A stretch of 64,000 bases of DNA from Anaeromyxobacter sp. (lineage in GTDB: Bacteria; Myxococcota; Myxococcia; Myxococcales; Anaeromyxobacteraceae), in NCBI GenBank assembly GCA_049840735.1, contig JASGJN010000022.1:800001-864000 (forward strand), written 5' to 3'. Both the position numbers and the translations under genes were made by a program. Below, piece by piece: positions 24,510 through 35,895 of this stretch. A model generated the notes under the pieces. That model was given only the letters and a program-made list of their open reading frames with translations, was not told the DNA's origin and made no database searches. How positions within the stretch are numbered: the stretch's first letter is position 1; each line of letters starts with the position of its first letter.

Positions 24510-25494
24510 ATGCACGAAGCAGCGCCCCACCCCGGCCAGGCCCAGGCCCGCCCCACCCACCGCGCCCTCACCGTGATGGCGCTGCTCCTGGGGATGTTCC
24601 TGGCCGCCATGGAGATGACGGTGGTCTCCACCGCCATGCCCACCGTGGCGGGGGAGCTGGGCGGGCTGCACCTCTACGCCTGGGCCTTCGCCGGGTACAT
24701 GCTCACCGCCACCGTCAGCGTCCCGATCTGGGGGAAGCTGGCCGACCTCCGCGGCCGCAAGGGGGTCATGCTGGTCGGCCTGGTCCTCTTCCTGGTCGGC
24801 TCCGCCGCCTGCGGCTTCGCGCCGGACATGCGCGCGCTCATCGCCGCCCGCGCCGTGCAGGGGCTGGGGGCCGGCGCCATCCAGCCCACCACGCTCACCA
24901 TCGTGGGCGACCTCTTCGACGTGCGCACGCGCGGCCGGATGCAGGGGCTCTTCGGCGGCGTCTGGGGCCTGGCCGGCCTGGTGGGGCCGCTGGTGGGCGG
25001 CGCGCTGGTCCACTTCCTGTCCTGGCGCTGGGTCTTCTGGATCAACCTGCCCTTCGGCGTGGCCAGCGCGCTGGTGCTGGCCAGCGCCTACCACGAGCGG
25101 CCGGAGCGCCACGCCCACCGCCTGGACCTGGGCGGCGCGGCGCTGCTCAGCGTCGCGGTGGTGGCGGCGCTGCTGGCGGCCCGCTCGCCGGCGACCGGGC
25201 GGGTCGCCGCGCCGGTGGCGGTGGCGGCGCTGCTCCTCTTCCTGTGGGTGGAGCGCCGCGCGGTCGAGCCGCTGCTGCCGCTCGACCTGTTCCGGCAGCG
25301 GGTGATCGCCGTGGCCTCCGGGGCCGGCGCCCTGGTCGGCGCGGCGATGATCGGCATGGTCACCTTCGTGCCGCTCTGGCTCCAGGCGGTGGTCGGGGCC
25401 TCGCCCACCCAGGCCGGCGGCGCCATCGCGCCCATGGCCGTCGGCTGGCCCGATCTTCAGCGCGCTCTCCGGCCGGCTGCTCCCGCGCACCGGC
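24510..25494 (+). CDS. MFS DHA2 (14-TM) efflux transporter, truncated at the segment junction
   Basis: GKLADLRGRK and WRWVFWINLP motifs; extra C near 25,451; similarity ends at ...SGRLLPRTG. Confidence 0.85.
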
Positions 25495-25696
25495 GCAAAA
25501 CCCAAGCCGTGCGCAAGAGTGCGGCGATTCCTCCGAGGAGGATCCCGGGCGACAACAGCTGAATCGACGCCGATGCGGCATCGTCGTCGAGGAGTAGGAG
25601 CCAGCGACAGGTGCTCGCGGCTCCCATCGACAGCAGTGTGCCTAGGATTTGCGCCGCTATCAGTCGCGGCGCAAGTCTGGTGACACCCCAGGTCAT
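25495..25696 (-). CDS. N-terminal fragment of a membrane protein, truncated at the junction
   Basis: ATGA overlap with the upstream kinase; two TM-like segments. Confidence 0.55.
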
Positions 25697-31770: not shown

Positions 31771-31890
31771 GGCACCGGCACCAGCACCAGCACCAGCACC
31801 AGCACCGGCACCAGCACCGGCACCGGCACCAGCACCGGCACCAGCACCAGCACCGGCACCAGCACCGGCACCGGCACCGGCACCAGCACC
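31771..31890. repeat. Hexamer microsatellite (RGCACC)x20
   Basis: 20 consecutive GGCACC/AGCACC units. Confidence 0.95.
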
Positions 31891-32279
31891 GGCATCGGCG
31901 TCTACAGGATTGGACGAGCCGCCGACGGCACTGTCGTCAATGGGTCGGCAATGCGTGCCGCTTCCATCGGGGGGAGATGATGTCCGTCGAGCGCCGTCGG
32001 TGCGACACGACGACGGACAAAAGCCGGTGCTGGGGCGCCAGCCGGTGCTGGCGTTGGACAAGGACGGGGCTCGCCAAATGGTACAAACGCTGGGGCACGA
32101 CCGGGAGCGCTGGAGCTCGTGAGCGTGCAGGCGGGGTCGGTGCGGTCTTTCGGTCGAGTCTGTGAGCGATTCGAGCTCTCGCTGATTTCACCGATTGAAT
32201 CCGGTGCGAAACATTCCGGAAACCTATCTCCCGTTACCCAAGGAGCGTCGGTCGATGAGACCGTCCCCGGTGCTTCTGA

Positions 32280-32688
<409 letters not shown>

Positions 32689-32718: not shown

Positions 32719-34140
32719 ATGTCCAGAATGAACGCGAAGGAAGCTATCGAGTTCGGCAAAAAAAACGGGTCGGTCATGGTCGACCTGAAGTTTTGCGATC
32801 TCATCGGCAAATGGCAGCACCAGACCGTTCCGTTCGAACGATTGAGTGAGGCCTCCTTCGAGAATGGGTTTGGATTCGACGGTTCGCAAGTCCGCGGATT
32901 CCAGCCCATCAATCAAAGTGACATGCTCCTCATTCCGGATCCTTCGACGGCGGTGATGGATCCGTTCTTGGGGCACCCCACGTTGTCCCTCGAGTGCACG
33001 GTGCGCGATCCGATTACGCGCCAAAGCTACTCGCGCGATCCGCGGTACATCGCGACGAAGGCAGAAGCGTATCTGCGGAGCACGGGCATCGCCGATCAGT
33101 GTCTCGTGGGGCCCGAAGCAGAGTTCTTCATCTTCGACGACGTGCGCTTCGATACCGGCGTGGAAGGTGCCTATTACTACATCGATTCCGTCGAAGCCGA
33201 CTGGAACACTGGTCGTGCGGAGAAGCCCAATCTCGGTCACAAGGTGCGATTGGGAGAGGGATACTTCCCGGTTCCTCCCCAAGATACCCTGCACGATCTT
33301 CGCACCAAAATGATGCTTTTGCTCGGAAGCGTGGGCATCGAAGTCGAGTCGGCGCATCACGAAGTCGCGACGGCAGGACAGAGCGAGATCGACATGCGGC
33401 AGGACCGACTGCTTCGCATGGCGGACAAGCTGATGTGGTTCAAGTACGTCGTCAAGAATGCGGCTCGGGCTGCGGGTAAGACCGCGACGTTCATGCCGAA
33501 GCCCATCTACGGCGACAACGGCAGCGGTATGCACGTCCACTTGTCGCTCATCAAGGATGGTGCGTCTCTGTTCACGGGTGAGGGATACGGCGGCCTTTCC
33601 GAGATGGGTCTGTACTACATGGGGGGCGTGCTCAAGCACGCTCGCGCACTTGCTGCTCTCACCAATCCGACCGTCAATAGCTACAAGCGACTCGTGCCGG
33701 GGTTCGAGGCGCCCGTGAATCTGGCGTACTCTTGCCGCAACCCATCTGCGGCAATTCGCGTCATGAGCCAACTCACGGCGTCGCGTCCTGCCAAGCTCGA
33801 ACTTGCGTTCCCGGATGCGACTTGCAACCCATACCTTGCCTTCGCAGCGATCCTCATGGCAGGTCTCGATGGGATCATCAATCGAATCAATCCCGGAGAT
33901 CCCTTCGACAAGGACGTGTACTCGCTGAGTCCAGAGGAACTCGACGACGTGCCTCACGTTCCCATGTCGCTTCCCGAAGCCATTCGGGCTCTCCAGGCGG
34001 ACCACGAATTTTTGCTTCGCGGTGACGTCTTTACGGAAGACGTCGTGTCCGTGTGGGTCGAATACAAAATGGAACGCGACGTGCGCCCCAGCCGCATGCA
34101 CCCGACGCCGATGGATTTCTATTTGTATTACGACGTCTGA
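32719..34140 (+). CDS. glnA: Glutamine synthetase type I-beta homologue with substituted catalytic residues
   Basis: FDGS, GPEAEF, HHEVA, TFMPKP, NGSGMH and NPYLAF motifs; adenylylation Tyr present; RNPS and ELAF replace RNRS and EVRF. Confidence 0.92.
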
Positions 34141-34178
34141 AGTCCGACGTTCGCATCGTTGCCACCGAATGCGCGGGA

Positions 34179-34370
34179 CGCGAGAACGCGCCGTGGATCG
34201 CGAGAGCGCGTCGTAGGTCGCGAGAACGCGTCGTAGGTCGCGAGAACGCGCCGTGGATCGCGAGAGCGCGTCGTAGGTCGCGAGAACGCGTCGTGGGGCG
34301 CGAGAACGCGTCGTAGGGCGCGAGAACGCGTCGTAGGTCGCGAGAACGCGTCGTGGATCGCGAGAACGCG
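34179..34370. repeat. 20-bp-period tandem repeat (CGCGAGARCGCG core + 8-bp variable linker), 10 cores
   Basis: Read directly from the sequence downstream of glnA. Confidence 0.95.
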
Positions 34371-34429
34371 CTTTTGCGAGGCCAAGCCGTACCCACGGCA
34401 AGAGACGTGGATCGCGACGTACCGACATC

Positions 34430-34509: not shown

Positions 34510-35895
34510 TTAGCGTCGCTTCGCTTTCTTCGCCGCCTTCTTTACCGCTTTTCCTGCGCTCTTCTCAGCAGGCTTCGCCGCTGGCGCCTTGCTTTCCGTC
34601 TTGCTCGCGGCTTTCTTGCCGGACACGGCGCGGGGCGCCTTTTCCGCGACGTCGTTGTCGCTCTTGCTGTTGCCCTTGGCCGCCGCCTTGGTCGTTGAAG
34701 ACTTCTTGGTGGCCTTCTGTCCGTACAGTGCAGACTTGCCAAGGAGCGCTTGTGCCAGCGCTTCCGCGTGGGTCGTGGCTTCCCATGGGAACTGCGCGCG
34801 CCCGAAGTGGCCGTAGGCTGCCGTCTCGCGGTAGATGGGACGCAGCAGATTCGAGTTCGTCGATGAGTGCCTTCGGACGGAAGTCGAAGTTCTTCATCAC
34901 GTACGCCGCAATCTTCTCGTCGTCCACGACGCCGGTTCCGAAGGTGCTCACGTAGACGCCAACGGGTTGTGCGACACCGATGGCATACGCCACCTGGACT
35001 TCGCAGCGACGAGCCAAGCCTGCGGCGACGATGTTCTTCGCGACGTAGCGCGCGAAGTAGCAAGCCGAGCGATCGACCTTCGATGGATCTTGCCCGAGAA
35101 AGCACCGCCACCGTGGCGACCCATGCCGCCGTAGGTGTCGACGATGATCTTACGACCCGTGAGGCCAGCGTCGCCGAAGGGGCCACCGATGACGAATCGT
35201 CCCGTGGGATTGACGAAGTACTTGGTCTTGGCGTCGAGCAGATTGGCGGGAAGCGTCTTCTTGATGCAGAGCTCGATGACGGCTTCCTTGAGATCCTTGT
35301 GCTTGACGTCGGGGCTGTGTTGCGTGGAAACGACCACCGCGTCGATGCGCTTTGGCTGATCGTTTTCGTACTCGATCGTCACCTGGCTCTTGCTGTCCGG
35401 GCGCAGGAAATCGAGCTTGTTCGACTTCCTGAGCTTTGCCAGGTTCTGCACCAACTCGTGCGAGTACATGATCGGTGCGGGCATGAGCTCGGGCGTTTCG
35501 TCGCACGCATAACCGAACATGAGCCCTTGATCGCCGGCGCCTTGCTCCTTGTGCAGGCCTTCACCTTCCGTCACGCCTTGGGAGATGTCGGGAGACTGCG
35601 GTTCGACCGCGATGAGGACACCGCACGTGTCGGCGTCGAAGCCCATCGACGAATCCGTGTAGCCGATGTCCTTGACGACGTTGCGAGCAATCTTCCCGAA
35701 GTCGAGATTCTTGGCTTTGGTCGTGATTTCGCCGGCAATGGCGACGAACCCGGTCTTACAAAGACACTCGCACGCTACGCGGCTGCGTGGATCTTCCGTA
35801 AGCGCGGCATCGAGCACCGCGTCGGAGATCTGATCACACATCTTGTCGGGATGTCCTTCACTGACGGATTCGGAAGTAAACAGGTATCGGCTCAT
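34510..35895 (-). CDS. metK: S-adenosylmethionine synthetase with a Lys/Ala-rich C-terminal extension (frameshifts near 35,089 and 34,852)
   Basis: [26 protein letters not shown] and TAAYGHFGR motifs; stop TAA at 34,510-12. Confidence 0.92.

Follow-up and report, generated by a model that had tools for sequence, protein, structure and literature searches.

The glnA gene of the window (the whole stretch of 64,000 nucleotides that was analysed) raises the question of why a glutamine synthetase (GS) gene that has lost catalytic residues should still be intact. The open reading frame (32,719-34,140, forward strand) encodes 473 aa without internal stops, and its product scored 598 bits against the type I GS model TIGR00653 (cut-off 429), as expected of a member of GSI-beta. 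Residues follow Salmonella numbering, derived from a near gap-free alignment to PDB 2gls/1f1h; the Synechocystis GS aligns likewise. The first-pass annotation had described an intact 473-aa frame carrying in-frame S53Q, R339P, R355K and R359A, and all four were found at the codons it gave: CAA (32,887-32,889), CCA (33,742-33,744), AAG (33,793-33,795) and GCG (33,805-33,807), respectively. Its list was real but incomplete, having missed K176G (GGA, 33,253-33,255) and F225Q (CAG, 33,400-33,402), the latter at the adenine-stacking residue. Window GlnA therefore has P, A and Q in place of the catalytic R339, R359 and S53 of GSI-beta. Retained are D50, D64, E129, E131, Y179, E212, E220, N264, G265, H269, H271, R321, E327, R344, E357 and the adenylylation tyrosine, Y397 (TAC at 33,919). 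All six metal ligands (E129, E131, E212, E220, H269, E357) are among these, and the alignment bears out the earlier statement that the ligands, D50, R321, E327, R344 and the tyrosine are kept.

Sequencing error was ruled out as a source of S53Q, R339P and R359A because the same three changes recur in two relatives: P0002, 99% identical and present on six contigs, and P0123, 96% identical with 21 aa differences. R355K is also found in P0002 and in P0003 (the GlnA of metagenome locus L117) and is absent from P0123. Since the RNPS/ELAF-type losses are common to P0002 and P0123, the variant is not strain-specific. The near-invariance claimed for R339 and R359 was also evident in our comparison set of 258 distinct GSI-beta sequences, where S53, R355 and R359 are invariant (258/258), K176 is K in 257/258 and R339 belongs to the positions with at least 98% conservation. 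In total, 257 of the 258 are unchanged at 19 active-site positions, a contrast that is partly by construction, as eight degenerate proteins, eight near-copies or fragments and five truncated or frameshifted loci were left out of the set.

A recent preprint on the Herbaspirillum seropedicae enzyme (10.64898/2026.09.02.748916) places the equivalents of F225 (Phe228) and R355 at the adenine ring of ATP and that of R339 at the gamma-phosphate, and attributes inactivation by AMPylation to disordering of the R339 equivalent. In E. coli GS, R339C and R359C each raise the Km for ATP and glutamate 40-100-fold and lower kcat similarly, according to a review (PMC12018205). It is thus highly probable, judging from the residues replaced, that window GlnA is strongly impaired as a GS, and the view that it is not a working GS very probably holds for canonical activity given R339P, R359A, S53Q, F225Q and R355K together. 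The fold itself appears to be kept. A model built on an alignment of 139 sequences, mostly canonical proteins, reached a pLDDT of 90.4 and a TM-score of 0.93-0.95 against solved GSI structures, with the GSI fold predicted over the full length; an earlier model from 20 close sequences reached a pLDDT of only 40.

A closer look at the contig (C22) showed that the gene does not come from the organism to which most of the assembly belongs. At about position 25,500 of the window the GC content falls from ~75% to 61%, and it does not recover over the last 147 kb. Matches to the host genus stop at 25,494, within an MFS gene that is cut mid-gene, and a Polyangiaceae match (genome G095) begins at 25,491. 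The contig is therefore chimeric at 25,491-25,494, with a 74%-GC, Anaeromyxobacter-like genome on the left and 61%-GC Polyangiaceae DNA on the right; in assembly coordinates the foreign segment runs from about 825,490 to the contig end. The named best matches of window GlnA are likewise Polyangiaceae, and the 147-kb segment is rich in plant-polysaccharide enzymes. Although 1.57% contamination is reported for the assembly, it holds this much foreign DNA. In a second contig (C25), the final ~36 kb (about 126,000-161,792) has a GC content of 60%.

A search for a second, canonical glnA did find one in the assembly, on contig C21, but it lies in 73%-GC DNA, and its product is 93% identical to GlnA of host-genus members and 86% identical to a record named Anaeromyxobacter. 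Because the contig is chimeric and the window gene lies in the Polyangiaceae segment, the C21 copy is that of the other organism in the chimera, and a duplicate beside a canonical glnA in one cell was rejected. Within the 147-kb segment, the part of the gene's true host genome that was seen, searches for a second GS, GSIII and glnE found none. Relatives with a canonical glnA have the same gene order (kinase, PALP gene, glnB, glnA, metK), so the window gene is the native glnA rather than a spare copy. The neighbouring genes carry traces of assembly error. In glnB, which encodes P-II (32,349-32,688, forward strand), one extra base at ~32,532, overlooked in the first pass like the chimeric junction, points to an assembly indel because three relatives and a 96% identical contig are without it. 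The downstream metK (34,565-35,895, reverse strand) is split over two frames and is intact in L117, probably another such indel. The Ser/Thr kinase is a conserved neighbour of Polyangiaceae glnB. Tandem arrays flank glnB-glnA at 31,771-31,899 (period 6, 21.5 copies) and 34,175-34,371 (period 20, 9.6 copies).

Active-site changes were found in P0002, P0003, P0004 and P0112 when the 120 best of 8,000 scored homologues were compared. In a quick tree, window GlnA (P0001), P0123, P0003, P0004, P0124 and P0125 group together as a single clade with a long stem (SH-aLRT 98). All six have lost S53 (now Q or R), K176 (now G or R) and F225. Thereafter R339 and R359 disappeared from P0001 and P0123, and E129, Y179, E212, H269 and H271, three metal ligands among them, from P0004, P0124 and P0125; P0003 retains most catalytic residues, including R339, R359 and all metal ligands. 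The metal ligands, D50, N264, R321, E327 and R344 are all kept in P0001, P0002 and P0123, and D64, G265, R321, R344, E357 and Y397 in 8/8 degenerate Polyangiaceae proteins. In P0001 the active site shows a modest enrichment of changes (4/19 vs 3/102, p = 0.012); in P0003 there is no such enrichment (p = 0.30).

Two degenerate proteins fall outside the clade. The GlnA of Polyangiaceae genome G088 has changes at 10/19 active-site positions, has just 51% identity and lacks 13 residues through a deletion; it sits on a long branch and its placement is unsure. P0112 is changed at 5/19 positions. P0112/P0133, a degenerate Polyangiaceae-type GlnA, carries S53A, E129Q, E131Q, N264S and E327D with Y397 kept, and a search for the genome encoding it found none. 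No clade member was among the 80 loci listed in a contig search of genomes, the best match to window GlnA across 383 Polyangiaceae genomes was 72%, and a metagenome scan returned one clade locus, L117. An apparent R359A in G033 proved to be a frameshift artefact. Moreover, 25 family GlnA proteins of ~50% identity that were suspected of being degenerate are catalytically intact foreign-type copies, four of them with Y397F. These copies (L200-L223 and L226, in G167-169, G248-262 and G367-383) have no native-GlnE match in their genomes, and foreign-type GlnA still adjoins glnB in three loci.

Relaxed selection, which would have spoken for a gene on its way out, was not seen overall. The sole full DNA pair, window and L117 glnA, gave pS 0.735, pN 0.078 and dN/dS of ~0.03, a rough value, as dS is near saturation, and one that partly predates R339P and R359A; metK of the same pair gave 0.024. 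Canonical pairs at saturation have a somewhat lower dN (0.046-0.065, vs 0.08 here). In a 946-base contig from run X1, 96% identical, the listed glnA differences comprise 18 synonymous and one non-synonymous change, with 8 of the contig's 39 differences outside that list. S46A and N391D occur both in the X1 contig and in P0002, so the two may not be independent.

Constraint is distributed unusually within the protein. Residues 396-473 (33,904-34,137, forward strand), comprising the adenylylation loop, the last helices and the inter-ring tail, vary more than any other region when 6,255 canonical pairs are compared (mean ratio to overall divergence 1.31) and less than any other in five pairs from the clade (0.26-0.82). 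Ratios this low occur in at most 0.8% of the canonical pairs, and pairs are not independent of one another. The inter-ring tail is conserved across the degenerate clade, and D409, P419, I422, R423, Q426, R456 and D466 are clade-fixed. A search with residues 400-473 returned only three clade clusters at 91-100%, with the next match at 64%. Constraint on the DNA at the 3' end of the gene was rejected: pS there is 0.74 and synonymous sites are saturated, so the constraint acts on the protein. By these substitution patterns, the C-terminal region has gained constraint in the degenerate clade, and in window GlnA this gain accompanies an eroded active site and strong purifying selection.

If window GlnA makes little glutamine, another enzyme would have to. 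The nearest of the 383 family genomes were chosen by the neighbouring kinase, namely G095 (76%), G090 (74%), G094, G097, G088 and five others, and G089 was added as the eleventh, partly on GSIII similarity. A tree built on six flanking proteins places the window and L117 as the sister group of G095 plus G090 (100/100). Between glnB and metK, glnA has been deleted in G095, G090, G094 and G097, by two to three losses on that tree. It is degenerate in G088, intact in G087, G091, G092 and G096, and frameshifted in G093; a genome search of G089 found no GSI-beta. Five of the 11 have neither glnA nor glnE, and none of the 11 has more than one GSI-beta. The hetero-oligomer that had been suggested, with another, canonical GSI, is therefore unlikely, the C21 copy being another organism's. 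GSIII is present in 11/11 (the G089 copy in two pieces) and in 126/383 genomes family-wide, with catalytic motifs intact in 7/7 checked.

The two genes share an upstream element. A direct repeat, GAAAC-N6-GAAAC (32,208-32,223, forward strand), lies 141 nt upstream of glnB; 0.05 occurrences per window are expected. The same repeat precedes glnB in 32/33 family loci and GSIII in 4/4 loci, 140-170 nt upstream. A stricter pattern gave three to nine matches in each of four whole genomes, two of them at glnB and GSIII, and adds G094, making five genomes checked in which GSIII shares the glnB box. Since it carries this repeat, GSIII would be the nitrogen-regulated GS of the group, as the shared box suggests. 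The repeat has an 11-bp period and is likely a Polyangiaceae nitrogen operator or promoter; presumably it resembles actinobacterial GlnR boxes. A search for ANTAR was uninformative, with 0/11 nearest genomes and 0/14 controls positive.

The distribution of GlnE follows that of its substrate. Among the 11 nearest genomes, GlnE is found in the six with glnA, G088 included, and in 0/5 without it. Family-wide it was matched in 282/298 genomes with native glnA, in 7/34 with GSIII and no glnA match, and in 0/25 with foreign-type glnA, in counts drawn from incomplete genomes with one query each and from kin that are not independent (G271, G312 and G313 enter these counts only). Ten GlnE-bearing genomes without a glnA match were rechecked; three hold glnA fragments and none a further degenerate full-length copy. 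GlnE thus normally appears to disappear along with GlnA. In G088 it survives beside a dead GlnA, with both nucleotidyltransferase motifs kept but with divergence (46% to G092 vs 60% for GlnD), which hints that the pair still works, in one genome of a separate lineage. For the window host, the 147-kb segment is without glnE, and G088 is the relative in which GlnE stands beside a dead GlnA. To judge from its relatives, the host would carry a GSIII preceded by the shared nitrogen box, and probably GlnE as well.

Taken together, these data make it reasonably likely that window GlnA is kept for a non-catalytic function, probably one in regulation, and we slightly favour an explanation in which GSIII took over catalysis while GlnA persisted as a non-catalytic scaffold, probably adenylylated by GlnE. 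The gene would be the native glnA, of GSI-beta type, in a Polyangiaceae lineage that degrades polysaccharides and obtains its glutamine from GSIII. Its product may still fold and form the GSI dodecamer while making little or no glutamine. GlnE would adenylylate it at Y397 according to nitrogen status, and a partner protein would read it by binding its C-terminal surface, such that the disarmed protein serves as a non-catalytic relay or scaffold ending the GlnD-PII-GlnE cascade. This specific mechanism of a GlnE tag and a partner is put forward tentatively. It is possible, if rather doubtful, that a GSI-beta has become a pure signalling protein, with GSIII as the catalyst, the dead dodecamer as GlnE substrate and the C-terminal surface signalling to a new partner, in which case degeneration with Y397 kept would have arisen in at most three Polyangiaceae lineages. 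Any such role is dispensable, because the nearest whole genomes, G095 and G090, have deleted glnA and are without glnE.

A rival explanation is that of a slowly decaying relic, made redundant by GSIII, whose catalytic residues drift ahead of deletion and whose constraint only avoids misfolding. The clean deletions in four relatives, by two to three losses, the lesions that differ between lineages, and the diverged, internally deleted G088 protein all fit such decay. Against it stand the dN/dS of ~0.03, the gained C-terminal constraint with its clade-specific fixed residues, and the fact that none of the full-length clade proteins is truncated over 20% divergence, although a length-limited protein search would miss frameshifted copies; we regard decay as unlikely. 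Alternatively, the retained metal sites and alpha-amino and alpha-carboxyl contacts could bind an amino acid or nucleotide, or ligate another substrate. Retention of the ligands, D50, N264, R321, E327 and R344 in the window protein and its two closest relatives, and of six residues in all eight degenerate proteins, agrees with a ligand sensor or new chemistry. However, sisters with a near-identical C-terminus have lost E129, E212 and H269, and F225 is lost clade-wide; the active-site version of the earlier amino-acid sensor proposal is weakened, as the sisters have lost nearly complementary pocket residues. Nor does new chemistry of the known kind fit, for the gamma-glutamylamine ligase described in PMC8394153 shows the opposite residue pattern and window GlnA scored 181 bits against NF045547, vs a cut-off of 650. 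Sensing or new chemistry at the active site is accordingly rather improbable.

That weak but useful GS or transferase activity remains is very unlikely. Single Arg mutants of E. coli GS do keep measurable activity, again according to the review (PMC12018205), and P0003 has R339, R359 and every metal ligand, but window GlnA combines R339P, R359A, S53Q, F225Q and R355K, and P0004 is without three metal ligands. The first-pass annotation had proposed instead that GlnA forms a co-evolved pair with an atypical P-II, and the two genes are indeed adjacent, with the 30-bp spacer that it reported between the glnB stop and glnA; P-II binding to an archaeal GSI-alpha has been reported and disputed (PMC11957540). 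However, residues 1-61 of P-II, T-loop included, are 95-100% identical in 32/33 Polyangiaceae loci adjoining canonical glnA (72% in L147), and P-II is equally conserved in the four genomes with glnA deleted. The T-loop is identical in 14/15 aligned P-II proteins, with one T39S, across intact, dead and deleted glnA. The P-II is therefore family-typical rather than particular to the degenerate lineage, and among the nearest genomes GlnD (10/11) and Amt (11/11) persist whether glnA is intact, dead or deleted, which means that this P-II has partners other than GlnA. A co-evolved module is hence extremely unlikely. A predicted complex of GlnA with the L117 P-II trimer scored 0.00 and was counted neither for nor against binding. 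At positions 39-40 the family-wide T-loop has Thr-Gly, and it carries Ser49 in addition to Tyr51; in this it departs from the enteric T-loop. A 181-base RNA contig matches the start of glnB with 0 differences; no long glnA piece was seen among the RNA contigs.

A GS fold without canonical GS function has precedents in lengsin (PDB 2j9i), plant NodGS and fungal FluG. These are eukaryotic and distant, 2j9i being a weak match, whereas window GlnA arose recently and still has 72-75% identity to its canonical orthologues. Its closest known counterparts are the GSI-beta enzymes of Salmonella and E. coli, Synechocystis (3ng0) and H. seropedicae (10.64898/2026.09.02.748916), with which it shares family, fold, adenylylation tyrosine, six metal ligands and a place after glnB; it differs at R339, R359, S53, F225, K176 and R355 and in a C-terminus under clade-specific constraint. 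Gamma-glutamylamine ligases (Haloferax GlnA-2, PuuA-type) likewise combine a GS fold with altered active-site residues. In Haloferax GlnA-2, D50, S53, Y179, N264 and E327 are changed and R339 and R359 kept (PMC8394153); the ammonium pocket is what changed there, while here a native glnA orthologue has lost R339 and R359.

For a disarmed GlnA acting through a partner, the nearest analogy may be the feedback-inhibited GSI-alpha of Gram-positive bacteria, which in its inactive state serves as a protein-binding platform for GlnR/TnrA and whose last helices contact the GlnR tail (PMC9249791). That partner, unlike window GlnA, is an active alpha type switched by glutamine rather than a permanently disarmed beta type with Y397. 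The title of PDB entry 8v1y, AMPylated E. coli GlnA bound to HinT, indicates that an adenylylated GSI-beta loop can be read by another protein, although that GlnA, unlike ours, is an active GS. The literature searched, in which subscription journals are largely uncovered, yielded no account of a disarmed GSI-beta, nor of GSIII replacement in Polyangiaceae. Adenylylation by GlnE is understood as an off-switch for GS catalysis. If the scaffold explanation is true, the GSI-beta dodecamer would have a second, separable function, and window GlnA would offer a naturally occurring separation-of-function allele with which to look for proteins that read GS. All stages of an enzyme replacement can be seen within the genus, where glnA is intact, disarmed or deleted beside GSIII.

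Lastly, degenerate GS-like proteins extend well beyond this clade. By automatic alignment, 38 of 108 full-length GS-like cluster representatives (P0150-P0297) have lost at least two of the six metal ligands, and a Tyr near position 397 is found in just 7/38 of these distant proteins. It follows that dead GS-like proteins are not rare and that the adenylyl-tag model would not be general; uncharacterised pseudo-GS proteins seem widespread. The degenerate GlnA proteins pass the TIGR00653 cut-off and so are annotated as active GS.
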